Part shown: in pieces, positions 1 through 63,290 of the stretch
How positions within the stretch are numbered: position 1 is the stretch's first letter
Layout of the letters: each line of letters begins with the position of its first letter
Source: Candidatus Staskawiczbacteria bacterium RIFCSPHIGHO2_01_FULL_39_25
GTDB taxonomy: Bacteria > Patescibacteriota > Minisyncoccia > Minisyncoccales > Staskawiczbacteraceae
DNA: 64,000 bases
NCBI GenBank assembly: GCA_001820095.1
Contig: MHOO01000011.1
Location: forward strand, 1,958 to 65,957
Reading direction: 5' to 3'
Made by a program: the position numbers and the translations under genes
The notes under the pieces: model-generated
Databases searched by the model: none
Told to the model about the DNA's origin: nothing
What the model saw: only the letters and a program-made list of their open reading frames with translations

Positions 1-138
1 TCCTAATTAACCTAATTATACTAATTAACCTAATCAAATCCTAAATCCTAATGCCAAAATTTTTAAAATGTTCTTTAGGAATTAGACATTTACCTGTTTA
101 GAAATTGATTAGAATAATTAGAGCAATTAGAATAATTC

Positions 139-3207: not shown

Positions 3208-3927
3208 ATGAATTTAAAAATACTCTACGAAGACAACGATGCGCTGGTGATAGACAAACCTGCGGGAATCGTTGTTTTCCCAGAAGGCGAAACAAAAGGA
3301 AATACGGTGATTGATGCACTTTTAGAAAAATATCCGGATTTAAAAAGCGTAGGAGAGGCGCCGCGATACGGAATTGTCCATAGGCTTGATAAAGACACTT
3401 CTGGCCTGTTATTGGTGGCAAAAACTACGAAAGTCTTGATTTTTCTGCAAAAACAGTTTAAAAATAGAGAGGTAGAAAAGAAATATACCGCACTTGTTTG
3501 CGGAACAGCAAAAGACGACTACGGCGAGATTAAAACCCTTATTGGCAGGTCGCCCCAAGACCCCAGAAAACAGAAAGCATATTCCCTAGAAGAACTTAAT
3601 AAAATAGGCAAACGAGAAGCAATTACAGAATACAAAGTTTTAGAACGCTTTGAAAAATACACGTTATTGGAAGTACAGATAAAAACGGGCAGGAAGCATC
3701 AAATACGGTGCCATTTAGCCTACATCCACCATCCAATTGCAGGAGATAAAACGTATGGATTCAAAGATTCGCCTATGCCTGAAGGATTAACCAGGCAATT
3801 CCTGCATGCGTCATATTTGAAAATACAATTATCAAACGGCCAAACCAAGGAATTTAGGTCAGAATTGCCGGAAGAATTAGAAATAGTAATTAAGAATATA
3901 GAATCTGGTATCTTGAATCTGGAATAG
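3208..3927 (+). CDS. RluA-family pseudouridine synthase
   Basis: HRLDKDTSGLLLVAKT catalytic Asp motif; K..IRCHL; last about 12 codons lie in a TAGAATCTGG-type repeat. Confidence 0.85.
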   Translation: MNLKILYEDNDALVIDKPAGIVVFPEGETKGNTVIDALLEKYPDLKSVGEAPRYGIVHRLDKDTSGLLLVAKTTKVLIFLQKQFKNREVEKKYTALVCGTAKDDYGEIKTLIGRSPQDPRKQKAYSLEELNKIGKREAITEYKVLERFEKYTLLEVQIKTGRKHQIRCHLAYIHHPIAGDKTYGFKDSPMPEGLTRQFLHASYLKIQLSNGQTKEFRSELPEELEIVIKNIESGILNLE

Positions 3928-4012
3928 AATATGGAATAAAGAATATTTAAGATATATTCTAAATTCAAAATTCCATTCAAGCTACTAGATACTGAATTCA
4001 AGATTCAAAATA
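3895..4012. repeat. short-period repeat block (tagaatctggtatcttgaatct ... attccattcaagctac); copy 1 of 3
   Basis: Near-identical blocks at 31545-31670 and 33170-33250. Confidence 0.7.
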
Positions 4013-4014
4013 AA

Positions 4015-6241: not shown

Positions 6242-6777
6242 TAAAGTATGATCCCGAAAAGGGATTTTTTATTATGAAAAACACTATTTTTAAGAGTAAA
6301 TCCCCTATTATTAGCTCTATAGTAATAGGCGTTATATCTGGAATAGTATTGTATGGGACATTCGTTCCAGAAACCATCAACGCCGATCTTAAAAACTCGG
6401 CTCCTTTGGCCAACCAGTCAACACTGGTTAAAAACGGCCATCTAACCATTTGCAAGCTAGACAGATCTTCTTACGAAGTGGTTAAAAAGGTAAAAATGAT
6501 GGTTACGGCTTATTCAAGCACCGAAGACCAAACGGATGATACGCCGTTTATTACCGCTTCAGGCAAAAAGGTGGCTGATGGAATTATTGCCAATAACATG
6601 CTGCCATTTGGAACTAAAATAAGGATTCCAGAGCTCTACGGAGATAAGATTTTTACCGTAGAAGACAGGATGCATAAAAGAAAAGGCCACTACCAAGCTG
6701 ATATTTGGTTTGAAGAGCATATAGAAGCTAAAAACTTCGGGGCAAAAGTTGCCAATATAGAAGTGGTAGAGAGTTAA
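6232..6777 (+). CDS. 3D-domain (MltA-like) cell-wall protein
   Basis: N-terminal TM; TAYSS..QTDDTPFITASGKKVADGIIAN..LPFGTKIRIP..FTVEDR matches the 3D domain; the true start may be ATG at 6274. Confidence 0.7.
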   Translation: MLRLKYDPEKGFFIMKNTIFKSKSPIISSIVIGVISGIVLYGTFVPETINADLKNSAPLANQSTLVKNGHLTICKLDRSSYEVVKKVKMMVTAYSSTEDQTDDTPFITASGKKVADGIIANNMLPFGTKIRIPELYGDKIFTVEDRMHKRKGHYQADIWFEEHIEAKNFGAKVANIEVVES

Positions 6778-6796
6778 AAAATCTGAATCATTAAGC

Positions 6797-6830
6797 AAAA
6801 AGCCGCGTTAGAACGCGGCTTTTTGCTTTT
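6797..6830 (+). terminator. rho-independent terminator
   Basis: aaaaagccgcgttagaacgcggctttttgctttt. Confidence 0.7.
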
Positions 6831-11947: not shown

Positions 11948-12048
11948 AGTGATTACAACTATTATACCCGTCAGTATATACTAATTTTATGGAGGATTCA
12001 ACTTTGTCTTTCTGGCATATTCATACACGGAAGGGAATGCTTCCCTCG

Positions 12049-12087
12049 GTCGGGATTTTCCGCTTATGCGGATAAATCTCGCGACCT
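12049..12087. repeat. hairpin repeat GGTCGGGATTTTCCGCTTATGCGGATAAATCTCGCGACC (family copy a, inverted)
   Basis: Reverse complement of copies at 15206-15248 and 61746-61789. Confidence 0.7.
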
Positions 12088-12170
12088 GATCCGACCCATC
12101 CCTTGGGTTCGAGTCCCACAACCACGAATTTAAAATTTTAACCAAAAAGATTTAGTTAAAATGATTAAAG

Positions 12171-15069: not shown

Positions 15070-15332
15070 TACTTTGAGTTACGAAATGCTTTCGCGGTAT
15101 TTTTCCAGAATTTGGAGATAGAAATTTGATAGAATTTTAAAATGTAGCAAGCTACATTTTAAAATTATTGCGAATTTATAGCCCAAATTCTGGTAGGGAC
15201 GCGCAGGGTCGCGAGAAATTCCCGCGAAGCGGGATTTCCCGACCTAGGCGTAATTCGCTTTAGCGAATTCGCCCCGTCCTAGAAAAGACCCGAAAAAAAA
15301 CGTTTTACATGGGCATTTCGTAATTCAAAGTA
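15070..15332. mobile_element. MITE-like element copy 1 (TIR tactttgaGTTACGAAATGC / GCATTTCGTAATTCaaagta); carries GGGTCGCGAGA hairpin copy b internally
   Basis: 20-bp terminal inverted repeats shared with copies at 19161-19336 and 57348-57522; internal nested palindromes; no ORF. Confidence 0.75.
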
Positions 15333-18198: not shown

Positions 18199-18205
18199 AG
18201 ATGAA

Positions 18206-18356
18206 ATGATTCTAATTATTCTAATTGCTCTAATTATTCTAATCAATATCTAATGTCTCAATGACTAGTTGCTCAAGAAAACATTTTGGGCATTGGGATT
18301 TGGAAATTAGGACTTGATTAGGTCAATTAGAATAATTAGATTAATTAGAAATTTTA
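18206..18356. repeat. ATTAG-type 9-bp-periodic repeat, inverted pair (rc arm 18206-18258, spacer, forward arm 18300-18356)
   Basis: gattctaattattctaattgctctaattattctaatcaatatctaatg ... gacttgattaggtcaattagaataattagattaattagaaat; sits between ABC ATPase and permease genes. Confidence 0.8.
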
Positions 18357-19160: not shown

Positions 19161-19336
19161 TACTTTGAATTACGAAATCCCTAATGAAAAGGCAAGTTTC
19201 AGGTCTTTTCTCTAAATTTCATCTGCAAATTTGCAATAATTGTGATGCGTAGGCAAGCTACGCCTCACAATTCTATCAAATTTTCGCCGTGAAATTTAAA
19301 GAAAATCCCTAGAAAGCATTTCGTAATTCAAAGTAT
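19161..19336. mobile_element. MITE-like element copy 2 (TIR TACTTTGAATTACGAAAT / ATTTCGTAATTCAAAGTA)
   Basis: Perfect 18-bp TIRs; internal palindrome ataattgtgatgcgtaggcaagctacgcctcacaattctat; no ORF. Confidence 0.75.
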
Positions 19337-19679: not shown

Positions 19680-19815
19680 AAATAAATCTTAAGCACGAAA
19701 TCCGAAGCACGAAACAAATTCAAATTACCGAAATTAAAAATTCAAAAAGCGTTTCGAATTTCGCTTGACCCACAGGTCATCCCTGTAAGGTCCTATTCGG
19801 ATTTCGAATTTAACC
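19680..19815. repeat. CGGATTTCGAA / AAGCACGAAA short-period repeat block
   Basis: Includes gacccacaggtcatccctgtaaggtcctattcggatttcgaatt, whose reverse complement is at 23568-23615; related copies at 23690-23735 and 32755-32790. Confidence 0.65.
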
Positions 19816-23552: not shown

Positions 23553-23689
23553 GTTATTGTTAAATTCGAAATTCCAATAGGACCTTACAGGGATGACCTG
23601 CAGGTCAAGCGAAATTCGAAACAATATCTAAATCCTAATGTTCAAATATTTTAAACGCATTTTGAATTTTGGATTTTGGATTTTGGATT

Positions 23690-23735
23690 TGTTTCGGATT
23701 TCGGATTTAGAATTTCGGATTTGAAAAAGTTTCCA
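23690..23735. repeat. TTTGGATTT / TTCGGATTT 8-9-bp tandem repeat
   Basis: ttttggattttggattttggatttgtttcggatttcggatttagaatttcggattt. Confidence 0.7.
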
Positions 23736-25026
23736 ACACTTGGAATACTTTTTCGTTATATATTGCTCCTTTAGTATACTCTTTTAATTGATTAATGTCA
23801 ATTTTGTCTATTTTATCTTTTTGGTGCTTTCGCAGTGCTTTGTTTATTTCTGCCTCCAGCTCTTCGTTAGAAACTTCTATCTGTTCGGCTTTCCCAATCT
23901 GCCGCAACACCAGAAAATTTTTAATTCTTTTTTCAGCTTCCAGGGCAAAAGATTTTTTAATTTCCTCTTCAGTCTTTTTAATGCTGGATAAATATTCTTC
24001 AAAGGTCATTTTAAAATTTTGGGCAATATGGTTTTTCATATCCTCAAACAGCCGCACCTGTTCATACTCAACCATTTTTTCGGGAATATCAAAACTGGTT
24101 TTTTGTGAAATTTTTTCCAAAATTTCTCCCCGTTTTCTCTGTTTTTCTGTTTCATTCTTCTCCATAGTTATCCCCTCTTTCAAATTTTCTTTCAGGGCAA
24201 CTAAGGTATCAAATACGGAGACGGGAGCTCCCGCTTCGCGGTAAGCTCTCGCGTCTTGACCCAGACTTTTTGCAAATTCATCGTTGATTTCAGGCAGCTC
24301 CATTTTTTGCACCGAAATTATTTTTACTTTAAAAGTGCTTTCTTTTCCCGCAATTGCCTTATTGGGAGTGTTTTCAGGAAAGTGCGCCACAAACTCTTTC
24401 TCTTCGCCTGATTTCATGCCAATAATATTATTCTCAAAATCTTTCAAAAATCCGCCCTCGCCCAATATAAACTTATCGCGAACTTCTTTCCCATTATTGA
24501 TATTCTCATTTTTATATTCAATTTCTATAAAATCTTTGTTTTCCGCCCCCCGGTCAATTTGCGAAAATTTTGCGCGGGACTTTTGCAGGTATGCCAATGT
24601 TTCTTCAATTTCTTTTTCATCAACTGAAATTTCCTGGCCTTTTACCATTGCCGCAATCTCTTTATAATCAGGCAATTCAACATCGGGCAAAACGGTAACC
24701 TTCACCTTAAACAAAAAAGGGTTATCTTTAGCGATCTTTAAAATTTGCACCTCTGGCTCGCCAATGGGTTCTAAATTATTTTCAACAATAAACTTGGTGT
24801 AGGCGCCCTTTACCGCCAAATCTCCTGCTTCCATAAGCAAATTTTCCGGCCCCACCTGTTTTTCCACCATCTCTTTCGGCACATTTCCCTTCCTGAAACC
24901 ATCCATTTTTACATGGCTTTTTAGGTGCTCTAAAGCTTTATCAAGGTACGTCTGAAATTCTTTTTCATCTAACTCAAAGTTGATTTCAACTAGCGATTTC
25001 TCTAATTTTTTAAGATCTGTTTTCAT
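23707..25026 (-). CDS. tig: trigger factor
   Basis: N-terminal ribosome-binding domain GFRKGNVPK; FKBP-like middle domain; upstream of clpP as in most bacteria. Confidence 0.9.
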   Translation of the reverse strand: MKTDLKKLEKSLVEINFELDEKEFQTYLDKALEHLKSHVKMDGFRKGNVPKEMVEKQVGPENLLMEAGDLAVKGAYTKFIVENNLEPIGEPEVQILKIAKDNPFLFKVKVTVLPDVELPDYKEIAAMVKGQEISVDEKEIEETLAYLQKSRAKFSQIDRGAENKDFIEIEYKNENINNGKEVRDKFILGEGGFLKDFENNIIGMKSGEEKEFVAHFPENTPNKAIAGKESTFKVKIISVQKMELPEINDEFAKSLGQDARAYREAGAPVSVFDTLVALKENLKEGITMEKNETEKQRKRGEILEKISQKTSFDIPEKMVEYEQVRLFEDMKNHIAQNFKMTFEEYLSSIKKTEEEIKKSFALEAEKRIKNFLVLRQIGKAEQIEVSNEELEAEINKALRKHQKDKIDKIDINQLKEYTKGAIYNEKVFQVLETFSNPKF

Positions 25027-25155: not shown

Positions 25156-27153
25156 TTATATGAGAAACGGAACAATAAGCAAGGCTACAATATTGAGAAC
25201 TTTAATCATGGGGTTAATAGCAGGACCCGCAGTATCTTTATAGGGGTCTCCGACGGTGTCTCCGGTGACAGCCGCCTGGTGGGCAAAACTGCCTTTTCCG
25301 CCCAAGTTTCCCTCTTCTATGTACTTTTTAGCATTGTCCCATGCAGCCCCTCCCGTAGTCATAGAGATGCCCACAAAGAGGCCGGTAATAATGCTGCCAA
25401 TTAACAAACCTCCCAAGGCTTGGACTCCCAAAAACACTCCCACCAAAATTGGTGCAGCCACAGGAATAATTGCCGGAATTAACATTTCTTTAATAGCGGC
25501 TTTGGTAACAATATCAACACATTTGCCATATTCTGGCTTTGCGGTGCCTTCCATTAAGCCTTTTATTTCTCTAAATTGCCTGCGCACCTCTTCCACTACT
25601 TTGCCCGCGGTCTTTCCCACCGCTCCCATTAAGAATGAAGCAAACAAGTAAGGAAGCAAGCCGCCAATCAGCAAACCGGCAATTACTTTGGGGTCAGCCA
25701 GTACAAAGTTTGCCGCCCGCAGAGAACCCGATAAATCAATAACCTGCTGGCTATAAGCCGCAAACAATACCAAGGCTGCTAAGCCTGCTGAAGCAATGGC
25801 GTATCCCTTAGTTACCGCTTTGGTGGTATTGCCGACGGCATCTAACGCGTCGGTAATTTTCCTTACTTCTTCTGGCATGCCCGACATTTCTGCAATTCCG
25901 CCGGCGTTATCAGTAATAGGGCCGTAAGCGTCAACTCCCACCACAATTCCCGAAATAGAAAGCATCGCCATAACCGCCAGCGCCACTCCATAAATTCCTG
26001 CCAGTTGGAAACTGATGATCGTGCCAAAAGCAATTAACAATACCGGATAGGCCGTTGACTGCATACCAAGCCCGATGCCCCTGATAATGTTGGTTGCATG
26101 CCCGGTTTCTGAAGCCTTTGCAATTGATCTGACCGGGCTGTATTTTTTTGACGTGTAATACTCAGTGATAATAAACATTCCGGCGGCAACGGCCAAGCCT
26201 ACCAACGTGGAAAAGTATAAATTATCTACGGAAATTTCCTGCCCTGCCATCATTTTAGTAATTAAGGGGTAAAAACCAAGCGCCGATAGCACTACCGACA
26301 CTGCCAAGCCTTTGTACATGCTTCCCATAATGCTTTGTGATTTTCCTAGTTTCACAAAAAAGCTTCCGACAATTGAAGTTAAAATTGAAATACTGCCTAA
26401 AAATAACGGTAGCAATACAAACTGCGGAGCGCGGGGGAATAATAACGCCCCCAAAATCATGGTGGCTACCGTGGTTACCGCATACGTTTCAAAAATGTCA
26501 GCTGCCATGCCAGCACAGTCTCCCACATTATCTCCCACCTGGTCAGCAATGACTGCCGGGTTTCTTGGGTCGTCTTCGGGAATGCCTTTTTCCACTTTGC
26601 CCACTAAGTCAGCTCCCACATCAGCGGCTTTAGTATAAATGCCTCCGCCGACTCTGGCGAAGACCGAAATCAAGCTTGCGCCAAATCCAAGCGCAACTAG
26701 TGCCTGTATATCCTTGGTGATAAAATAATAGCCAGAAACCGCTAATAATCCTAAGCTGACTACCAAAAGGCCTGTTACGAGTCCGCCCTTGAATGATAAG
26801 TCCAAGGCAAAGCTAAGCCCCCGTTCTGCAGCTTTGGCTACCCGCGTATTGGTTTGGGTTGAAACAAGCATCCCAATGAATCCTGACAAACCAGATAAAA
26901 ATGCTCCAATCAAAAAACCAAGAGCCATTTTCCAACCCATAAAGAACAAAAGGCCGATGGCAATGGCAATGGCCACAATGCTTACCGTTCTGTACTGCCT
27001 TTTTAAATAGGAAATAGCGCCCTCTTGAATGGCCTGGGTAATGGCTATGGCTTTATCTTTTGCTACCGGAGCCTTGTTGATTCCCGTAATTAAGAAAAAC
27101 ACAAATGCAATGGCAAACAGCGAAACGATGATAGGAAAATAGGTGATTAACAT
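25156..27153 (-). CDS. hppA: membrane-bound pyrophosphatase (H+/Na+-translocating PPase)
   Basis: [18 protein letters not shown] and [15 protein letters not shown] signature motifs; about 15 TM. Confidence 0.95.
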
Positions 27154-27159
27154 GCCAAC

Positions 27160-27300
27160 GAATTTTCAATTTTCAATTCCCAATTTTCAATCAATTATCA
27201 ATGAAACGAATTTTCAATGACGAAAACGTTAATTTGATAATTTGGTAATTTAATACTTGATTGATAATTGATACTTGATAATTGATAATTAAAATTTACT
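27160..27300. repeat. TTTTCAATT / TTGATAATT short-period repeat block
   Basis: caattttcaattcccaattttcaatcaattatcaatg ... ttgataattgatacttgataattgataatt; related copies at 42905-42960 (inside ksgA) and 61685-61740. Confidence 0.7.
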
Positions 27301-31544: not shown

Positions 31545-31670
31545 TATAGAATCTTGAATTTGGAATCTAGTAGCTTGAATGGAATTGTGAATTTAGAATG
31601 TAGGTTTTTCAATTCTTCATTCTTTTATTCTATTCTAGATTCAAGATACCAGATTCTATATTCACACTAC
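31545..31670. repeat. TAGAATCTGG / ATTCCATTCAAGCTAC repeat block (copy 2)
   Basis: Matches 3895-4012 and 33170-33250. Confidence 0.65.
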
Positions 31671-33154
31671 TAAGTGACCCAATACTTGCTTTTTGTTACC
31701 TTGTCTTGCTCTGCCTGCACTTCAAATTTTTCCTCTTTTGATTTCTCTGCTAAATTTTTCAGTTTTTTATCATCTAATGCCCCTAAAGTTTTGATTTCTC
31801 CCTCTAAAAATTCCTTAGTATTTTTCTTTGGATCATCCAATACATATCCCAATAGTATATCTAAAATTTGCCCTACCTTAGGCCCCGGCTGTATTTTTAA
31901 AATATCCATAATATCTTTTCCGTCCACCTTCAACATTTTCACAGAAATAGGATCTTTTGAAACTTTTTCAATAACATATTTTAAATGCCGCAACTTATAA
32001 GGCTCTGCCTTTGGAACACCAGAACCAATCCTGTCAGCTTCCCGTAATTGCAACAATTCCTCCATATTTTCAGGCCTTACCTTTTTTACCAATCTTCTTA
32101 CCGATGATTCTGAAACTTCATCTACATTATAGTAAAACATATGGTGCCGTATCAAATTTACTATTTTTTCAGTGTCTTTATTTGAAAACTTCAAACGTTG
32201 TAAAATCTGGAAGGCCATTTTAGCTCCTAGAACTTCGTGGTTATAAAAAGTGGATTCTTTGCCCTCGCCAACTTTTGCGCGGGGTTTTCCAATATCATGG
32301 AAGAGGGCTGCCAGCCTTACATGCATATTAAATTTTTTCTTAGCAGCGTATTCCAGCGCTTTTAAGGCATGCTGGTAGCAATCATAGATATGGTGCTTAT
32401 TCTGGCCAACACCGTAATTTTCTTCTAATTCAGGGACAATATGTTTTAAAAGGCTAAGGTTGCGGAGCAAATCAACGCCATCAGAAGCCTTAGGCAACAT
32501 AATAATTTTTACAAATTCATCCCGTATTCTTTCTTGTGAAATAGCCTTTAGCCAAATGCTGTTTTTTTTAATAGCTTCGGCAGTTTTTGGTTCAATGGTA
32601 AATTCTAAGGTTGTTGCAAACCGCACTGCTCTTAACATTCGCAGAGCATCTTCATTAAACCTTTCATCGGGACTTCCAACGGTTCTAATAATTTTTTTCT
32701 TCAGATCTTTTTGCCCATCGAAAAGATCTATGATATTTAAATTGGATTTTATCTTTATTTCGGATTTCGAATTTCGTGCTTCGGATTTAATACCAATGGC
32801 CATTGCATTTACGGTAAAATCCCTTCTTGCCACATCTTCGTCTAAACTTTTAGCGAATCTTATTTCATCAGGATGGCGCTTATCTGAATATTTGGCTTCT
32901 AGCCGGTAGGTTGTAATTTCAACTTCTGGGATTTTCTCGCTTCCTGTTTTTGCCGTTACGGTCAAAAATTTATTCTCATAAAAATTATCAGGAAACACTT
33001 TTTGGATTTCTTCTGGCGCAGCTTCCGTAGCAACATCCCAATCTTTGGGTTCTATGCCAAGCAAAAAATCACGGACGCATCCGCCGACGATATAAGCCTG
33101 ATAGCCCGCGTCTTTCAACTTCTTCAGTATGGATTTTACCTCTTGTGGGATAAC
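31670..33154 (-). CDS. cca: CCA-adding tRNA nucleotidyltransferase with HD domain; carries an in-frame repeat insertion
   Basis: GGCVRDFLLG..DWD polymerase-beta head; HD motif HDIGK; listed ORF to 33232 reads through a repeat, ATG at 33154 (MVIPQEV) taken as start; codons for IKSEARNSKSEIKIKS (about 32755-32790) are a CGGATTTCGAA repeat copy. Confidence 0.85.
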   Translation of the reverse strand, partial: VIPQEVKSILKKLKDAGYQAYIVGGCVRDFLLGIEPKDWDVATEAAPEEIQKVFPDNFYENKFLTVTAKTGSEKIPEVEITTYRLEAKYSDKRHPDEIRFAKSLDEDVARRDFTVNAMAIGIKSEARNSKSEIKIKSNLNIIDLFDGQKDLKKKIIRTVGSPDERFNEDALRMLRAVRFATTLEFTIEPKTAEAIKKNSIWLKAISQERIRDEFVKIIMLPKASDGVDLLRNLSLLKHIVPELEENYGVGQNKHHIYDCYQHALKALEYAAKKKFNMHVRLAALFHDIGKPRAKVGEGKESTFYNHEVLGAKMAFQILQRLKFSNKDTEKIVNLIRHHMFYYNVDEVSESSVRRLVKKVRPENMEELLQLREADRIGSGVPKAEPYKLRHLKYVIEKVSKDPISVKMLKVDGKDIMDILKIQPGPKVGQILDILLGYVLDDPKKNTKEFLEGEIKTLGALDDKKLKNLAEKSKEEKFEVQAEQDKVTKSKYWVT

Positions 33155-33169
33155 CATTATTAAGAATCT

Positions 33170-33250
33170 GGAATCTTGTATCTTGAAGCTAGAATACGAA
33201 CCGTAAAATTCTATATTCAACATTCCATTCAAGCTACCAGATACAAGATT
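33170..33250. repeat. TAGAATCTGG / ATTCCATTCAAGCTAC repeat block (copy 3)
   Basis: Matches 3895-4012 and 31545-31670. Confidence 0.65.
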
Positions 33251-33315
33251 CTAGATTCATAGTATAGTAAAGTTTGCTTTTTTTCAATTTTTATCGTAAA
33301 ATCATTTAATTAATT

Positions 33316-42583: not shown

Positions 42584-42597
42584 AGGTCAAATATCAA

Positions 42598-43512
42598 ATG
42601 AATTTACTCTCAATCGCTACCATAAAAAACCTGCTGACTGAATTTGGAACTAAGCCCTCAAAAGGGATGGGCCAGAATTTTTTGATAGATGAAAAAACGC
42701 TTAATAACATTATAGAAGCCGCCCAGCTTACCGAAGAAGACACGGTATTGGAAATAGGACCCGGGCTGGGAACTCTTACCAAAGCATTGGCAGAAAAAGC
42801 CAAAAAAGTCATTGCCATAGAAAAAGACGCTGTTTTTATTGAAATTCTTAAAAAAACCCTTAGTAATTTTATGAATGTTGATATAATTAATGGCAACATT
42901 CTTAAAATGAATTTTCAATTATCAATTATCAATTTTCAATCAAATTCCAATATTCAATTGCCAAAAAATTATAAATTGGTTGCTAACCTGCCTTATTATA
43001 TTACCTCTCCGGTCATAAGAAAGTTTTTAGAGATGGAAAATTCTCCAACGTCCATGGTATTTATGATACAAAAAGAAGTGGCTCAAAGAATTTGCGCCAA
43101 GCCGCCAAACATGAGCCTGCTAGCAGTCTCCGTACAGTATTATGCTAAACCCGAAATTATATCATACGTCTCAAAAAAATGCTTTTGGCCTTCTCCAAAC
43201 GTTGACTCTGCCATTATTAAGATTGTGCCGCGGAATTACGCAGAAATTAACCCTGCAAAATCGCCTGAAAGCGATAGCGGAGCAAGCGCGAAACCGCCCC
43301 AAAAAAAAGATATAGATTTGTTTTTTAAGGTGGCAAAAGCGGGGTTTTCCCATCCTAGAAAACAACTATTAAATAACTTATCTGTAAGCCTGAAAATGAA
43401 TAAAGAAAAAATAAATTTATGGCTTTTAACCAACAATATACGGCCATCACAGAGGGCAGAAACACTGACGATAGAAAATTGGACTAGCCTTGCAAATAGC
43501 TTCCCGGTGTGA
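42598..43512 (+). CDS. ksgA: 16S rRNA (adenine1518/1519-N6)-dimethyltransferase RsmA/KsgA with two in-frame low-complexity insertions
   Basis: GQNFL, SAM motif VLEIGPGLGTLT, NLPYYITSP; insertion MNFQLSIINFQSNSNIQ is a TTTTCAATT repeat copy (42905-42960); second insert NPAKSPESDSGASAKPPQKK. Confidence 0.9.
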   Translation: MNLLSIATIKNLLTEFGTKPSKGMGQNFLIDEKTLNNIIEAAQLTEEDTVLEIGPGLGTLTKALAEKAKKVIAIEKDAVFIEILKKTLSNFMNVDIINGNILKMNFQLSIINFQSNSNIQLPKNYKLVANLPYYITSPVIRKFLEMENSPTSMVFMIQKEVAQRICAKPPNMSLLAVSVQYYAKPEIISYVSKKCFWPSPNVDSAIIKIVPRNYAEINPAKSPESDSGASAKPPQKKDIDLFFKVAKAGFSHPRKQLLNNLSVSLKMNKEKINLWLLTNNIRPSQRAETLTIENWTSLANSFPV

Positions 43513-46923: not shown

Positions 46924-47328
46924 ATGTCACAATATCCCATTCCACAATTTATTGAAGAAGAAGGAAAAATTATCTTTTTCCTAACATTCCGGCAATTTTT
47001 TCTGCTTGCAGGAGGAGGAGCTGTTTGCCTTATTATATATTTTCTAGCCCCTTATTCCCTCTTTTTGGGCGCCGCGGCCCTTATTATGATAACGGTTATC
47101 GTCATAGCCTTTGTGAAGGTTCAGAACGCATCCATAGTAACTGTTGTGCTTAATATGCTTGGATTTATGGTAGGTAAAAAAAACTACACCTGGAGTAAAA
47201 GGGGAACAAATGCACGGCCCGAAACAGAAAGAAAGCAAGAATTTAAAAAACCCGTTGAAGTTCCGGCCCCAAAACTACAGCCCAGCAAACTAAGAGCAGC
47301 GCAGAAGATGATAGAGGTGAGGAAGTAA
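46924..47328 (+). CDS. PrgI/VirB3-like small T4SS membrane protein
   Basis: IPQFIEEEGKIIFFLTFRQFFLLAGGGAVCLIIYFL N-terminal pattern with two TM; immediately upstream of VirB4. Confidence 0.5.
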   Translation: MSQYPIPQFIEEEGKIIFFLTFRQFFLLAGGGAVCLIIYFLAPYSLFLGAAALIMITVIVIAFVKVQNASIVTVVLNMLGFMVGKKNYTWSKRGTNARPETERKQEFKKPVEVPAPKLQPSKLRAAQKMIEVRK

Positions 47329-47377
47329 TTATCCTAATTAACCTAATTATTCTAATTGTTCTAATCAAACCCTAATG
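47329..47377. repeat. ATTAG-type repeat arm (rc orientation) ending in ccctaATGtcc, which supplies the start of ORF 47375
   Basis: ttatcctaattaacctaattattctaattgttctaatcaaaccctaatg. Confidence 0.8.
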
Positions 47378-47770
47378 TCCAATGAAAAAAATACAAAATA
47401 CGATTTAGAAGAAAGAACTGCTAAATTCGGAGAAGATATTATAAATTTTGCAAAAATCATTCCAGTAAATCCAGTTACTCAAAGAATTATTCCTCAATTA
47501 GTAGCATCCGGAACTTCTATGGGCTCAAATTACTGTGAAGCAGACGATGCAGAATCTGGCAAAGACTTTAAGCATAAAATAGGAATTTGCAAAAAAGAGG
47601 GCAGAGAAACAAAATACTGGCTAAGGATGATAGCTGCTGCAGTGCCAGCATTAAGAGAAGAAGCACGAGTTTTTTGGCAGGAAGCTAAAGAATTACACTT
47701 AATCTTTAATGCTATTTATCGTAAAGTTAACAAAAAGCCTTTAGAAATTAAAAAATTAAGTATTGATTAG
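47375..47770 (+). CDS. four-helix-bundle protein, second paralog (TIGR02436-like)
   Basis: SGTSMGSNYCEADDAESGKDFKHKIGICKKEGRETKYWLRM matches the 4HB/IVS family pattern; flanked on both sides by ATTAG repeat arms. Confidence 0.65.
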   Translation: MSNEKNTKYDLEERTAKFGEDIINFAKIIPVNPVTQRIIPQLVASGTSMGSNYCEADDAESGKDFKHKIGICKKEGRETKYWLRMIAAAVPALREEARVFWQEAKELHLIFNAIYRKVNKKPLEIKKLSID

Positions 47771-47811
47771 GTAAATTAGATTAATTAGTATAATTAGAAT
47801 AATTTCAAAAC
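47765..47811. repeat. ATTAG-type repeat arm (forward orientation) ending aataatttcaaaacATG, which supplies the start of ORF 47812
   Basis: attaggtaaattagattaattagtataattagaataatttcaaaac; same terminal 27 nt precede ORF 48788. Confidence 0.8.
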
Positions 47812-48486
47812 ATGGAGCCGGCGACACAAGATTTTTTAGAAATTCAAGACATTAGAGAAGGCATTGTGATCTTGAAAAATAACAACATACGGGGGATATT
47901 AATGGTTTCCTCTATTAATTTTGCCTTAAAATCTGACGAGGAGCAGTCAGCCATTATTTATGCCTTCCAGAGTTTTTTAAACTCGCTGGATTTTTCGTGC
48001 CAGATTATCATACAATCCAGAAACATCAATATCACCCCCTACTTAGACAACATTAAAGCATTAGAAGAAAACCAAACGAGCGAGCTCATGAAAGCACAAA
48101 CTGCCTCATACGGAGAATTTATCCGAGAGCTAGTGAAAGGAGACAATGTAATGACAAAAAGCTTTTATGTGGTGGTGCCATATACGTTAGCAGAAATACT
48201 GGGAGTTGGATCTGCGGTAAGCAAATTTAATTTCTCTGAAATGCTAGGATTAGGCAAGAAAAGCAAAGGGGAGAATAAGCCGATAATAAAAGATGAAGAC
48301 TTTGAAAAGTGCAAAAACCAGCTTTGGCAAAGGATGGAATTTGTAGCCATGGGGTTAAAGAGGTGCGGATTAGACGTTATTCCCCTGACCACCCCGGAGT
48401 TGATTGAACTATTTTGGGCAACCCACCACCCCAGTGAAGCAGAAATCGGATACTCGCCGGAAGTAGTGCCAGAACTGCTGAAATAA
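47812..48486 (+). CDS. VirB4-family protein, N-terminal fragment
   Basis: FLEIQDIREGIVILKNNNIRGILMVSSINFALKSDEEQ matches the N-terminal domain of Gram-positive-type VirB4 (TcpF/PrgJ-like); stops at TAA at the first base of a repeat. Confidence 0.6.
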   Translation: MEPATQDFLEIQDIREGIVILKNNNIRGILMVSSINFALKSDEEQSAIIYAFQSFLNSLDFSCQIIIQSRNINITPYLDNIKALEENQTSELMKAQTASYGEFIRELVKGDNVMTKSFYVVVPYTLAEILGVGSAVSKFNFSEMLGLGKKSKGENKPIIKDEDFEKCKNQLWQRMEFVAMGLKRCGLDVIPLTTPELIELFWATHHPSEAEIGYSPEVVPELLK

Positions 48487-48787
48487 TTATTCTAATTGAC
48501 CTAATTTCTAATTGTTCTAATCAAATCCCAATTCCCAAGCCCCAATTCCCAAACGTAATTTGGGAATTAAGGAATTAGGCATTATTTTCTAGCAAGCGAA
48601 GGCAATAAAGATTCACAAATATTTATTGCCAAGCGGCGACGAAAATATGCTTTGCATATTTAGAATAATAGAAATAGGATTTATATAATACGTCGCTCGG
48701 TCGGCATACGTGAAACTGCGGTTTCCCCTATGCCTCCCTTGGCTAGTATTATTAGAGCAATTAGTATAATTAGAATAATTTCAAAAC
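48487..48787. repeat. composite repeat cassette splitting virB4: ATTAG arm, CCCAATTCCCAA repeats, and a 130-bp element (48655-48787) that is the inverted copy of 60153-60285
   Basis: Direct comparison: reverse complement of 48655-48787 matches 60153-60285 at about 97% over about 130 nt. Confidence 0.85.
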
Positions 48788-53904: not shown

Positions 53905-53912
53905 CTTAAATG

Positions 53913-54057
53913 AATTCCTAATTATTCTAATTGCTCTAATTATTCTAATCAAATCCTAACTTCTAATGTCTAATTTATAAAAAATACTTATTCATTGGGA
54001 TTTGAGTATTGGGGCTTGATTAGGTTAATTAGAAATTAGGTTAATTAGTATAATTCC
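53913..54057. repeat. ATTAG-type 9-bp-periodic inverted repeat pair (rc arm 53913-53975; forward arm 54020-54057)
   Basis: cctaattattctaattgctctaattattctaatcaaatcctaacttctaatgtc ... cttgattaggttaattagaaattaggttaattagtataatt. Confidence 0.8.
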
Positions 54058-54060
54058 GCA

Positions 54061-57347: not shown

Positions 57348-57522
57348 GACCTTGAATTACGAAATGCTTTCACGGTATTTTCTCCAAATTTGAAGGCGAA
57401 AATGTGATAGAATTTTAAAATATAGTTTACTACATTTTAAAATTATTGCACATTTGTAGACCAAATTTGGAGAAAATACCTAAAACTTGCCGTTTCATGG
57501 GGCATTTCGTAATTCAAGGTCT
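57348..57522. mobile_element. MITE-like element copy 3 (TIR AGACCTTGAATTACGAAATGC / GCATTTCGTAATTCAAGGTCT)
   Basis: Perfect 21-bp TIRs; interior about 85% identical to copy 1; right end overlaps the PBP1A stop codon. Confidence 0.8.
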
Positions 57523-59999: not shown

Positions 60000-60203
60000 T
60001 TATTCTTCTTCGTCGGCCGCTACTTCATCGTCATCATCCTCTTCATCGTCTGCTTCATCATCCTTAACCTCTTCCTCTTCATTGCCATCGTCGTAATCAT
60101 CAAAGTCGTCTACTTGGCTGATAACATTGAGAAATTCCTCTTCCATTTTTTGAATTATTCTAATTATTCTAATTGCTCTAATAATACTAGCCAAGGGAGG
60201 CAT
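60000..60203 (-). CDS. small highly acidic protein (about 60% Asp/Glu)
   Basis: ATG at 60203 lies in the 130-bp inverted-repeat element (MPPLASIIRAIRIIRII); internal ATG at 60146 (MEEEFLNV) is an alternative start. Confidence 0.4.
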   Translation of the reverse strand: MPPLASIIRAIRIIRIIQKMEEEFLNVISQVDDFDDYDDGNEEEEVKDDEADDEEDDDDEVAADEEE

Positions 60204-60370
60204 AGGGGAAACCGCAGTTTCACATATGCCGACCGAGCGACGTATTATATAAATCCTATTTCTATTATTCTAAATAATAACTAATGTCTAATTTCTAAAA
60301 ACTTTTGGCATTAGGATTTAGGATTTGATTAGGTCAATTAGTATAATTAGGTTAATTAGACTAATTTATT
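60147..60370. repeat. composite repeat: ATTAG arm, 130-bp element 60153-60285 (inverted copy of 48655-48787), ATTAG arms to 60370
   Basis: See feature 48487-48787. Confidence 0.85.
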
Positions 60371-60960: not shown

Positions 60961-61697
60961 AGCGAAAATTTCAAATTAGAGTATATATCCTGTATGGCGT
61001 CGTTTTCATCTAGCGCCTCAAAAAGCTTTTCAGCTTTTTCTTTATCCTTGCCGCTTATTTCGATTTCTTCTTTGGCAACCCAATCCAGCGACGCAGACTG
61101 AATTTTCAGCTGTTTTTCTTCCAATGCCTTTTTTATTTTTTCTAAGTCTTCCGGCTTGGTATAAATGGCCAGCATGTTCTCTTGCCAGCGCACGTCTTCT
61201 GCCCCAGCTTCTATGGCCAGCAGCTCAAGGGTCTCTTTTGCTCCTTGGTTTTCGGGCACCATAATAGCGCCCTTCCTATCAAACATCCATTTTACTGCCC
61301 CTTCTCCGGCTATCTTGCCTTCATGCTGGCTTAAAATGCTCTTTACATCTCCTAATGTCCTATTTTTATTGTCAGTAATGCCCTCCATAATAATAGAAAA
61401 ACCTCCGGGGCCGAATCCTTCAAAAGATACCTCTTCCAGGCTTTCACCTGCCAATTCTCCCGTGCCTTTTTTAATAGCCCTTTCAATGTTTTCTTTGGGC
61501 ATATTAAATTCTTTGGCTTTTTCTATGGCAGCCTTCAATTGAATATTGCTGGCAGCATCAGGCCCCTTTTCTTTTACAGCAATAGTAATAACCCTTCCCA
61601 TTTTGGAAAAGATTTTCCCTTTCTTGGCATCATTAGCGTTTTTGGTTGCTGCGACTGTTTTAAAATGGCTATGACCGGACATACTACGAATTTTCAA
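60957..61697 (-). CDS. YebC/PmpR-family transcriptional regulator
   Basis: MSGHSHFKTV..KKGKIFSKMGRVITIAVKEKG family N-terminus; 246 aa. Confidence 0.85.
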   Translation of the reverse strand: MKIRSMSGHSHFKTVAATKNANDAKKGKIFSKMGRVITIAVKEKGPDAASNIQLKAAIEKAKEFNMPKENIERAIKKGTGELAGESLEEVSFEGFGPGGFSIIMEGITDNKNRTLGDVKSILSQHEGKIAGEGAVKWMFDRKGAIMVPENQGAKETLELLAIEAGAEDVRWQENMLAIYTKPEDLEKIKKALEEKQLKIQSASLDWVAKEEIEISGKDKEKAEKLFEALDENDAIQDIYSNLKFSL

Positions 61698-61880
61698 TTT
61701 TCAATTTACAATTTTCAATAAGTAGGTGTCGAAATTTTCACAATAGGGTCGCGAGATTTATCCGCTTTAGCGGAAAATCCCGACCTAGGAAAATTTCGAC
61801 GGATTTAATTATTTCAAATTGAATAATTTCAAATTGATTTCAAATGGCCTAAATTTCAAATTTCAAATTGATTTTCCACC
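61685..61880. repeat. mixed short-period repeats (TTTTCAATT block; GGGTCGCGAGA hairpin copy c at 61746-61789; AAATTTCAAATT block)
   Basis: Copies elsewhere: 27160-27300, 42905-42960, 12049-12087, 15206-15248, 54285-54340. Confidence 0.7.
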
Positions 61881-63025: not shown

Positions 63026-63290
63026 GGAGTGTGGGACTCGAACAGAACCAATTGAGCTCTCGTATATTGCTTGTATTCAAGGATTGAGGAATGAAACGAT
63101 GCCTTGCGCATCGTTTCATTCTGAATACGCAGAAGACAAGCAAGTGACAGAGCCCGAAGGGAAGCGAAAACAGAGATGATGTCTGCGTTGCGACTTCGGA
63201 AACATAGCGCAAGGCTATGTTTCCTCGTCGCGCCTTGACCTCATCTCTGTTTTCGCTTCTCAAGCTGGTTCTGTTCGAGTCCCACACCCC
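63026..63290. repeat. 265-bp nested palindromic element with 24-bp TIRs (GGAGTGTGGGACTCGAACAGAACC / GGTTCTGTTCGAGTCCCACACCCC); MITE or structured RNA
   Basis: Internal 13-bp hairpin 63089-63121 and a 20-bp outer stem gcgaaaacagagatgaNgtc enclosing further hairpins; TIRs resemble a tRNA T-arm/acceptor; contains the ruvB stop codon. Confidence 0.7.

Follow-up and report, generated by a model that had tools for sequence, protein, structure and literature searches.

The ksgA gene of a groundwater bacterium of the Candidate Phyla Radiation (CPR), Candidatus Staskawiczbacteria, carries a translated stretch of tandem 7-nt units, which on balance we take for a one-armed, in-frame and stop-free copy of the heptanucleotide arrays found genome-wide, tolerated in a disordered loop of the enzyme and kept uniform at the DNA level. 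The analysis covered 64 kb of contig MHOO01000011.1 (here called the window), from a genome of about 40% GC.

A heptanucleotide array is translated within ksgA

The gene, its array and a second variable loop are located as follows.

42598..43512, plus strand: ksgA/rsmA, 16S rRNA adenine dimethyltransferase, catalytic motifs intact, carries the array
42909..42960, plus strand: in-frame heptanucleotide array of ksgA, CAATNNN / AATTTTC-type, 52 nt, encodes NFQLSIINFQSNSNIQL
43230..43310, plus strand: second lineage-variable KsgA loop, RNYAEINPAKSPESDSGASAKPPQKK, of low confidence in the AF2 model

The open reading frame (ORF) 42598-43512 was assigned to RsmA/KsgA by profile search (PF00398, E=3.9e-56, 190 bits) and by its match to B. 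subtilis KsgA (6ifs, E=2.7e-52). The protein has the RrnaAD fold with SAM motif I (GPGxGxLT) and motif IV (NLPYY), whose columns are invariant in the alignment of relatives, and its AF2 model has a mean pLDDT of 90.9. The original prediction placed a repeat in frame within ksgA at 42905-42960, a segment translated as MNFQLSIINFQSNSNIQ, and the 52-nt array at 42909-42960 confirms it. TRF reported a period of 7 with 4.4 copies at 42910-42940, so that the unit is the 7-nt AATTTTC/AATTATC and not a 9-mer. The array falls in the loop joining strand 3 (motif III) to strand 4 (motif IV, NLPYY), where residues 109-115 have an AF2 pLDDT below 50 and are without secondary structure.

As RNA, the array folds no better than shuffled sequences (z=+0.2). 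It consists of a single arm, and no inverted partner arm was found within +/-2 kb. One relative, L151, has a second, inverted array within its own ksgA, a single case. Twenty-two contigs encode the identical KsgA protein, and the six loci fetched from NCBI, ENA and JGI sources all have the same array DNA, with no variation in copy number or length; phase variation of the array was rejected on this lack of length polymorphism among the six assemblies. A promoter within the array was likewise discarded, promoter-like matches being at background (7 sites vs 4.6 +/- 2.3), as was a known RNA family, since Rfam at gathering thresholds returned only 18 tRNAs in the window. An antisense gene was also rejected: a 101-aa antisense ORF (42594-42899) begins directly after the array, and the closest carrier is without its ATG. 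In the second variable loop several relatives hold short-period repeats; here its sequence is single-copy in the window and it was rejected as a repeat copy.

The same arrays populate intergenic DNA

Two intergenic copies share the core of the ksgA array.

27154..27295, minus strand: intergenic composite element, occupies the entire spacer between two minus-strand genes
61683..61722, minus strand: the other intergenic site with the 32-nt CAAT core, reads ATTGAAAATTGAAAATTCGTAGT, abuts the ATG at 61682

The 32-nt core, GAATTTTCAATTTTCAATTNNCAATTTTCAAT, is present with 0 mismatches at 27160 and 61688 and with one mismatch at 42909 (31/32), that is, in three copies in 64 kb where shuffles give 0.00, so that the identity of the ksgA repeat with these two intergenic repeats, which had been proposed beforehand, holds. 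The pattern CAATN3CAATN3CAAT has 6 matches in the window vs 0.05 expected. Chance low-complexity sequence or an assembly artefact in an AT-rich genome might be imagined from the GC content and from the AT-rich codons of N, F, Q and I, but the shuffle expectations of 0-0.05 and the identical sequence in the six loci refute this explanation, to which we give practically no weight.

The composite at 27154..27295 has two array arms, one of CAAT type (27160-27215) and one of ATTG/ATTGATA type (27228-27290), with a spacer between them; it ends 6 nt ahead of the ATG at 27153 and is predicted to form an RNA hairpin of -31.8 kcal/mol (z=-3.9). Two copies of the ~140-nt unit 27143-27290, at 86-88% identity, are present in another Staskawiczbacteria species (L051), at non-orthologous sites and flanked by genes unrelated to those here.

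Period-7 arrays are in excess in the intergenic DNA of the window, with 12 found vs 0.4 simulated and, by an independent scan, 13 vs 0.8. They abut or include stop codons (at 3927, 47328, 48486 and 23707) and terminate 1-8 nt before ATGs; upstream of three genes a CAAT/AATTTTC-type array lies 1-6 nt from the start, at the Shine-Dalgarno position. The intergenic heptamer arrays are inverted pairs forming long imperfect hairpins, and the in-gene copies correspond to one arm. Many arrays listed by TRF have 4.4-4.6 copies; a fixed quantum of four units was nevertheless rejected, given that a threshold-independent scan showed decaying lengths and no peak, and the clustering is probably an effect of the detection threshold. 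The window also holds a separate MITE-like family with 15-nt terminal inverted repeats.

A second in-frame array in cca, and arrays at gene ends

A CCA-adding enzyme gene carries an array of another heptamer family and is surrounded by further arrays.

31670..33157, minus strand: cca, CCA-adding enzyme / poly(A) polymerase family with HD domain (PolyA_pol+HD match)
32747..32790, minus strand: in-frame CGAAATN heptanucleotide array of cca, encodes KSEARNSKSEIKIK
19690..19715, plus strand: intergenic CGAAATN-family array, with a 19-nt stretch in common with the cca array
23659..23724, minus strand: intergenic CAAAATC/CGAAATC array, overlaps the stop codon of gene 23707-25026
31549..31663, strand not assigned: GAAT-family arrays directly downstream of cca
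33164..33258, strand not assigned: GAAT-family arrays directly upstream of the cca start

The upstream GAAT arrays lie inside an over-long ORF call beginning at TTG 33232; cca most likely begins at ATG 33157 (MVIPQEV), and its product matches the 495-aa cluster P0121 at 100% identity. As foreseen, cca also contains an in-frame repeat: TRF found period 7 in 4.6 copies at 32757-32788, translated as IKSEARNSKSEIKIKS, and the family is also intergenic (19696, 23659-23724), CGAAATN x3 having 8 matches in the window vs 0.13 expected. The array is located at a beta-hairpin tip downstream of the motif DFTVNAMA, where residues 126-137, between strands 120-123 and 140-143, have an AF2 pLDDT below 50 and no secondary structure; as in KsgA, the model is confident elsewhere. 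The array is missing in the closest relative (81% identity), and other CCA relatives have ACATGGA x4 or CAAATTN arrays at the site.

The last codons of rluA and ruvB had been expected to run into repeats of the same kind; this was correct for rluA only.

3885..4014, plus strand: GAAT/ATTC heptamer composite hairpin, from the rluA 3' end to the next ATG (4015)
63161..63259, minus strand: ruvB 3' hairpin, GC-rich, about 100 nt, not a heptamer array

The first hairpin (-33.2 kcal/mol, z=-5.5) begins within the final ~11 codons of an RluA-family gene (3208-3927) and provides its stop; its GAAT period-7 array runs from 3887 to 4006, the pattern having 15 matches in the window vs 0.99 expected. The C-terminal tail of RluA exceeds the modal length in 113 relatives by about 6 aa. 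At ruvB, an inverted repeat with 23-nt arms (63161-63183 / 63237-63259; 96% complementary) includes the last 6 codons and the TGA stop as one of its arms; it has a strong predicted fold (-70.4 kcal/mol, z=-9.8), and the 64-kb window holds no further copy of it. The ruvB tail was ruled out as an extension, the Pseudomonas RuvB having a tail of similar length.

KsgA and CCA loops are hotspots for arrays

In close relatives, the array segments of ksgA and cca, which lie in predicted unstructured surface loops, are missing or different; the KsgA loop varies in both length and sequence among relatives of 55-66% identity. That the segments had been inserted, as the original prediction worded it, is nonetheless not established: the KsgA loop exceeds that of B. 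subtilis KsgA by only 4 residues, and the apparently empty relatives hold other heptamer arrays there (ATACAAG, CTTCATC, ACATGGA and more across KsgA and CCA loops). Among 56 KsgA loops of 27 nt or more taken from relatives, self-match is raised at lag 7 only (0.364 vs 0.263), and it reaches 0.6 or more at this lag in 10 of the 56, compared with 1.2% of control segments. Dozens of unrelated heptamer units occur in KsgA loops, some filling the loop exactly as perfect 27-nt arrays. The KsgA and CCA loops are thus array hotspots and not one-off insertion sites.

The phenomenon extends to other genomes, where the AATTTTC array is in-frame within the Pfam domains of Fmt, TrmD, prepilin peptidase, CobD, an M24 peptidase and a methyltransferase, in all six in the stop-free orientation; in a P-type ATPase, read by eye, the array is reversed and has a mutated unit. 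At least 120 loci of the AATTTTC-type array were found in Bacteroidales, CPR, cyanobacteria, Acidobacteria, Planctomycetes and Desulfonema. The ksgA copy and an intergenic copy of Nealsonbacteria (L121) have a stretch of about 45 nt in common, which includes the non-periodic tail CAATCAAATNCCAATNTTCAATT, and the boundaries of the ksgA array are common to three distant KsgA genes. Taken together, the shared tail and boundaries favour copying of a defined element arm over local slippage.

These observations bear on a mobile element of RPE (Rickettsia palindromic element) or MITE-like type, of which the ~140-nt array hairpin or one arm was transposed or copied, in-frame insertions being those that survive. 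The composite placed twice between unrelated genes in L051, the 31/32 match of the ksgA copy to the intergenic cores, the likeness to the L121 copy beyond the periodic part and the MITE-like elements with terminal inverted repeats in the same window all speak for it, and RPEs offer a precedent (PMC10969869). However, ksgA holds a single arm that does not fold, and neither terminal inverted repeats on the in-gene copies nor a clear target-site duplication at the ksgA array was seen when the ksgA flanks were inspected by eye, AT-rich flanks being prone to obscure such duplications. Moreover, the dozens of heptamer units in the KsgA loop would require equally many element families, and identical arrays are present in unrelated phyla. 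We consider a mobile element possible, though not probable.

The array is the best-conserved DNA of ksgA

Conservation was compared across four array-carrying KsgA genes, whose pairs are not independent. In these carriers the array, shared between genes 52-66% identical in protein sequence, is the best-conserved nucleotide stretch of the gene, at an identity of 0.78-0.89 vs 0.58-0.68 for the remainder. Where residues are identical, 83-100% of codons are also identical in the array vs 34-51% elsewhere (Fisher p = 2e-4 to 0.025), and third-position identity elsewhere in ksgA is 0.32-0.49, so that synonymous sites look saturated. As to a single origin or repeated gain of the array, the four carriers fall into two distant groups among non-carriers in a neighbor-joining tree that is star-like and without bootstrap. 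Read from these comparisons, the array is preserved as a nucleotide sequence, not as a peptide.

Selection on the NFQ-rich loop as a protein, for example as a lineage-specific contact with the ribosome or a partner, would agree with the 9-13 of 18 loop residues that are identical among the four carriers. Nevertheless, conservation is at the level of codons and not of residues, the loop is predicted to be disordered, and its length and sequence vary freely in relatives; a functional peptide is therefore very improbable.

Synonymous conservation past saturation is unexpected for a merely tolerated loop and could mean a direct function. The translated array may be a functional DNA or RNA element under selection, binding a protein of S1, Csp or nucleoid type or acting as a signal in translation or mRNA stability. 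In addition to the conserved synonymous sites, the arrays at the Shine-Dalgarno position of three genes would suit this possibility, and protein binding has been proposed for heptamer arrays upstream of starts (PMC4679880). On the other hand, most KsgA relatives have a different array or none, the ksgA copy neither folds nor has a second arm to pair with, its promoter-like matches stay at background, the closest carrier does not share the antisense ATG, and conversion from intergenic copies could yield equal conservation. We regard such dual use as unlikely. A bolder possibility, to which we assign a still smaller chance, is that the heptamer arrays, far from being slippage debris, are a deliberately written or maintained nucleic-acid code of ~4-7 x 7 nt, recognised by a conserved factor for binding or processing, or else laid down by an enzyme dedicated to this task, which would serve in intergenic hairpin arms and in leaders without Shine-Dalgarno sequence and would be held constant over coding sequence.

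Returning to the reading that we favour, a tolerated copy kept uniform at the DNA level, the uniformity most likely results from homogenisation with the numerous intergenic copies, by ectopic conversion or by slippage, with direct selection on DNA or RNA as the alternative.

Proposed mechanism

Arrays of ~4-7 tandem 7-nt units reside mainly in intergenic DNA, where inverted array pairs form long imperfect hairpins spanning from the stop codon to the next start. In our proposal, arrays would arise and turn over everywhere, by slipped-strand replication, by recombination or conversion between arrays, or by both. Within a gene, an array would survive only if it adds a length divisible by 3, runs in a stop-free orientation and occupies a surface loop that tolerates it; no frame of AATTTTC has a stop codon, whereas the opposite orientation, GAAAATT, includes TGA. 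In KsgA, the array would be translated as a disordered loop of 17 residues between motifs III and IV, and in the CCA enzyme it would extend the beta-hairpin tip. The catalysis of both enzymes is expected to be unaltered.

Comparison with known repeat systems

STRR heptanucleotide repeats of heterocystous cyanobacteria were reportedly described by Mazel in 1990. The arrays resemble the heptanucleotide LSSRs, exemplified by TAACTGA in Beggiatoaceae, cyanobacteria and Bacteroidetes (PMC4679880) and by the GGGNATC repeats of Xanthomonas and Nostoc (PMC4692102), in that they comprise a handful of tandem 7-nt units, are in excess in intergenic DNA, lie tight against start and stop codons, with occasional overlap of the stop, and are scattered patchily over several phyla. 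Heptanucleotide repeats are an over-represented class of simple sequence repeats (SSRs) beside start and stop codons (PMC4679880, PMC4692102); the SSR survey of Mrazek (2007) is taken here as summarised in PMC4679880. The arrays described here differ in being AT-rich, so that a G-quadruplex rationale does not apply, in being paired inverted into hairpin composites that recur between species, and in being also in-frame in conserved housekeeping enzymes, although 7 is not divisible by 3. A search for literature combining Patescibacteria, simple sequence repeats and intergenic DNA found none; apart from a Borg paper with a single mention of CPR, these bacteria were absent from the papers retrieved.

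The likeness to RPEs that had been suggested stands in part. RPE families are non-coding repeats of which copies are also found in frame within unrelated housekeeping genes, at surface positions that the protein fold can accommodate (PMC10969869). The ksgA and cca segments are in-frame in housekeeping ORFs, belong to intergenic families that are dispersed, multi-copy and of recognisable consensus, vary in relatives and lie at predicted surface sites, and so match the effect of RPEs. They are not palindromic elements, being one-armed and non-folding: RPEs are palindromes of ~100-150 bp inserted whole, with a conserved peptide, whereas the gene here has one non-palindromic arm of ~30-50 nt, and the intergenic composites form hairpins but the in-gene copy of ~52 nt does not. 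They are heptanucleotide SSRs, with families of many different units and one loop reused by different arrays. At gene ends the likeness fails for ruvB, which is a different object, and for rluA the effect is a tail of about 6 residues.

Borg tandem repeats generate disordered regions (PMC9879509), and as in the present case one repeat process acts in genes and in intergenic DNA, with genic copies disordered and some beginning within gene ends. However, the genic units of Borgs all have a length that is a multiple of 3 and yield perfect repeats in the protein, while the 7-nt units here have a peptide period of 7 residues and arrays of about four units without an amino-acid repeat, and are imperfect and old, as they are common to genes with 52-66% protein identity. 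In Haemophilus and Neisseria, phase-variable contingency SSRs similarly lie in or beside genes, but their copy number shifts the frame or the promoter spacing, whereas here the frame is always kept. Pizzi and Frontali (2001) are said to have described low-complexity inserts in housekeeping proteins of Plasmodium falciparum; these are similar as lineage-specific, Asn-rich segments in enzyme loops of an AT-rich genome, attributed to slippage, and dissimilar in being eukaryotic, mostly triplet-based and without matching intergenic hairpin families.

Implications

In conclusion, the range of in-frame translated repeats in essential enzymes is widened from Rickettsia to the Candidate Phyla Radiation, and 7-nt SSRs, usually presumed to be barred from coding sequence, are here translated. 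Two recurrent hotspots can be named, the loop between strands 3 and 4 of KsgA and, in the CCA enzyme, a hairpin tip of the head domain. For annotation, it matters that arrays lengthen ORF calls at both ends and mimic insertions in CPR proteins. If the code reading were true, segments of KsgA, CCA, Fmt and TrmD would be dual-coded in CPR bacteria. Finally, a predicted disordered loop that is the most conserved DNA of ksgA is a measurable anomaly, which makes it possible to test whether heptamer arrays have a function or are by-products of mutation, a long-standing question.

Arrays in four genes and their intergenic relatives

The four host genes have the identities that the original prediction gave them, and the ksgA product was found on 22 contigs (NCBI, ENA and JGI assemblies). 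The names carried by homologues point to Candidatus Staskawiczbacteria, within the Parcubacteria/CPR group.

Host genes of the repeats
42598-43512, plus strand: ksgA, KsgA/RsmA (PF00398, E=3.9e-56); array 42909-42960
31670-33157, minus strand: cca, class II CCA/poly(A) polymerase with HD domain; array 32747-32790
rluA: RluA-family pseudouridine synthase
ruvB: RuvB, truncated by the window end

The repeat quoted for ksgA was located at 42905-42960, and TRF describes it as 4.4 copies with period 7, a heptamer AATTTTC/AATTATC rather than a 9-mer. Its identity with an intergenic repeat was confirmed, as the window has three copies of a 32-nt core (27160 and 61688, both intergenic, and 42909 in ksgA, with one mismatch), where shuffles expect none. 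The in-frame array claimed for cca (32757-32788, period 7, 4.6 copies) is likewise a family copy, of CGAAATN, which has 8 matches against 0.13 expected and intergenic members at 19696 and 23659-23724.

As had been noticed, rluA ends within a repeat, here a GAAT period-7 array. The modal end of 113 relatives lies 13-17 residues past the conserved LPEEL and that of the window protein 20 past, so the array contributes a tail of about six residues. Within this tail (3910-3912), an amino-acid polymorphism separates the window protein, ESGILNLE, from P0241, a cluster representative for the RluA-family protein, ESCILNLE. Stop codons lie within the first array unit at 3927, 47328, 48486 and 23707, and such a run-in is thus a general feature here. 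The ruvB end, listed as another short-period repeat, turned out to be a different object, unrelated to the heptamer arrays: a unique inverted repeat (63161-63259; 23-nt arms, 96% complementary; fold -70.4 kcal/mol, z=-9.8), one arm of which is made up of the last six codons and TGA. This hairpin overlaps the stop codon and has no T-run 3' of it, which rules out a canonical intrinsic terminator.

Short-period arrays compose most spacers

Reading all the intergenic DNA revealed that most spacers are composed of short-period arrays (heptamer families CAAT, GAAT, CGAAAT, TTTCTAA, AAATTTC, TTAGGGT and others). The 9.3 kb of non-coding sequence contain 12 period-7 arrays, where composition-matched simulations give 0.4. 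Typically, two inverted arrays with a short spacer jointly take up all the space between one gene's stop codon and the ATG of the next. Of these composites, 27154-27295 and 3885-4014 give long imperfect hairpins (z=-3.9 and z=-5.5 against shuffled controls), which may have a role between the genes. The CTAAT/ATTAG family has a 9-nt period and 19 pattern matches against 0 expected. ATTAG arrays lie mostly on the sense strand immediately 5' of start codons, for example ...attagaataatttcaaaacATG (twice), with no Shine-Dalgarno motif visible there, and CTAAT arrays lie mostly directly 3' of TAA stop codons or overlap them, except at 47329-47374, where the array extends to the next ATG.

Further repeat families of the window
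1-138, 18202-18354, 47325-47374, 47762-47811, 48483-48560, 48744-48787, 53910-54060, 60149-60369: CTAAT/ATTAG family
15074-15328, 19165-19331, 57352-57517: MITE-like elements, 166-255 nt
12048-12100, 15206-15250, 61746-61790: GC-rich palindrome family
48710-48734 (minus), 60199-60223 (plus): identical 25-nt segment GGCATAGGGGAAACCGCAGTTTCAC

The three MITE-like elements, with 15-nt terminal inverted repeats TTGAATTACGAAATG (6 matches against 0.37 expected), form a family separate from the arrays. The GC-rich palindromes consist of GGGTCGCGAGAnnTnnCCGC, a loop and GCGGnAAnTCCCGACC (three copies, 0 expected), and one copy is nested between array arms at 61698-61855. Similarly, GGCATAGGGGAAACCGCAGTTTCAC belongs to a hairpin of about 50 nt nested in two CTAAT/ATTAG composites, giving repeats within repeats. 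Between 43565 and 48486, five small genes come after a TrbL-like one, and the spacers 3' of four of these are almost wholly arrays (TTAGGGT, CTAAACC, CTAAT, ATTAG); on relatives' contigs, T4SS-pilin Pfam matches occur nearby. Mechanical ORF calls at 33158-33232, 18205-18246 and 53918-53952 begin too far 5', at TTG or GTG codons, and read array sequence as false N-terminal residues, and automated annotation of such genomes is likely affected.

In 8 kb of L051, a locus from another Staskawiczbacteria species, composite 27143-27290 has two further copies (86-88% identity), whose neighbouring genes lack detectable similarity to the window's flanking genes, and a CTAAT/ATTAG copy is kept at 6655-6809 (77%). 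The composite behaves as a dispersed element. True transposition of an element could also have brought arrays into genes, a reading that we consider unlikely: the in-gene arrays are one-armed, with no inverted partner near that of ksgA. The comparison with Rickettsia palindromic elements held in its effect, repeat DNA translated in frame in predicted surface loops of housekeeping proteins, but not in its objects: instead of mobile palindromes, these are arrays of heptanucleotide simple-sequence repeats (SSRs).

Loops of KsgA and the CCA enzyme are array hotspots

The AlphaFold model of KsgA (mean pLDDT 90.9) has two low-confidence places, residues ~101-122, which include the array, and 212-235. 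Array residues 109-115 fall below pLDDT 50 without secondary structure, between strands 94-98 and 125-130, and CCA residues 126-137 (EARNSKSEIKIK) fall below 50 between strands 120-123 and 140-143, so both arrays are predicted to encode unstructured tips. The loop between GDILK and YKxVANxPYY has a length of roughly 7 to 60 residues in 39 KsgA relatives (53-66% identity), and the site 3' of DFTVNAMA carries 0 to about 30 extra residues in 36 CCA relatives (72-81% identity). The proposed alignment with orthologs, taken with the models, supported the insertion idea in part, since the loops are predicted to be unstructured and the closest CCA relative lacks the window's segment, but the apparently "empty" KsgA loops of P0003 and P0049 are encoded by other arrays, CACTACN x4 and AACTANN x4. 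Moreover, the KsgA loop is only four residues longer than in B. subtilis KsgA, which makes "insertion" a loose description.

In the 56 KsgA loops that measure 27 nt or more, from ksgA relatives and further metagenomic ksgA genes, self-similarity was raised only at lag 7 (0.364 against 0.263). It came to 0.6 or higher in 10 of the 56, compared with 1.2% of control segments taken from these genes. The loops' units are mutually unrelated (ATACAAG, CTTCATC, TAAGGAC, GAAGCTG, AATTTCC and others), some occupying a 27-nt loop perfectly, and CCA relatives have ACATGGA x4 or CAAATTN arrays at the cca array's site. Both loops are thus array hotspots reoccupied by different units, not single insertion sites.

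The second KsgA loop (residues 212-235, window 43230-43310) is also hypervariable and of low pLDDT; it is single-copy in the window, whereas P0002 has ATCAAAA x4 there, and P0014 and P0049 have ACGCAGAACC-type repeats whose period is 10-12 nt. CCA relatives have more lineage-specific inserts after CVRDFLL, TGSKK and RFATTL, which resemble translated GC-rich palindromic repeats (for example ARRSLGEGGIAASPEGEASLAP, ALSGAEWA, GPALSERSESKG), and some relatives have similar segments, of IASS...RND type, in their KsgA loop.

The ksgA array is conserved as DNA

Three KsgA relatives (P0002, P0014 and P0034; 52-63% BLAST identity to the query) carry copies of the array with identical boundaries. Among the four carriers, only four sequences in non-independent pairs, nucleotide identity is 78-89% in the array against 58-68% in the rest of the gene, and third-position identity 0.72-0.89 against 0.32-0.49; only 0-2% of 18-codon windows elsewhere in ksgA are as highly conserved as the array. 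Within the array, identical residues use identical codons in 83-100% of cases; in the rest of the gene, the figure for these types of amino acid is 34-51% (Fisher p from 2e-4 to 0.025). A loop predicted to be disordered is thus the best-conserved DNA of ksgA in these carriers, which are not grouped in an unresolved NJ tree. The array might owe this to ectopic conversion or slippage that keeps it uniform with the conserved intergenic family, to having been acquired anew at one site several times, or to direct selection on the nucleotide sequence. Such selection would imply that the in-gene copy has a function of its own as nucleic acid, which we hold to be rather improbable; the mRNA around the ksgA array shows no folding beyond chance (z=+0.2).

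One metagenomic ksgA (locus L151) has two AATTTTC arrays of opposite orientation in one ORF (2301-2343, plus; 2701-2719, minus), the second encoding ELKIENCKLKI in the C-terminal domain, and they could pair across about 360 nt of mRNA.

In-frame arrays in other genomes

Scanning one genome per species for AATTTTC-type cores yielded at least 120 loci, in Bacteroidales/Prevotella, many CPR lineages, cyanobacteria, Acidobacteria, Planctomycetes, Desulfonema and others; among the matches listed, the arrays are often again inverted pairs adjoining other heptamer arrays. Of about 124 AATTTTC arrays sampled from other genomes, seven fall within ORFs that have Pfam support.

Pfam-supported ORFs containing an AATTTTC array
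Fmt, Peribacteria
Prepilin peptidase, between its two Pfam domains, Nealsonbacteria
CobD, Bacteroidales
M24 peptidase
Class I methyltransferase, Falkowbacteria
TrmD
PIG-V-like transferase (weak match, E=1.7e-8)

In all seven, the array orientation is open in every frame, and in a P-type ATPase, read by eye, a reverse-orientation array has a mutated unit that abolishes TGA. As frame is kept and stops are absent throughout, the in-gene segments are probably translated, not spliced out.

The arrays of the window and of these phyla agree with published descriptions. Heptanucleotide repeats are, in the summary of Mrazek 2007 given in PMC4679880, the dominant long-SSR class of prokaryotes; TAACTGA arrays lie just 5' of start codons in Beggiatoaceae, cyanobacteria and Bacteroidetes (PMC4679880), and GGGNATC arrays near ORF starts and stops in Xanthomonas and Nostoc (PMC4692102). 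Our search of the literature on CPR/Patescibacteria and repeats found no description of heptanucleotide arrays in CPR within the library searched.

In conclusion, transposition, a nucleic-acid function and tolerance of the array partly overlap as readings. We lean slightly towards tolerance, by which an in-frame array, filtered according to its frame, its stop codons and its position in a loop, would be kept uniform by conversion or slippage and may be neutral for enzyme function.
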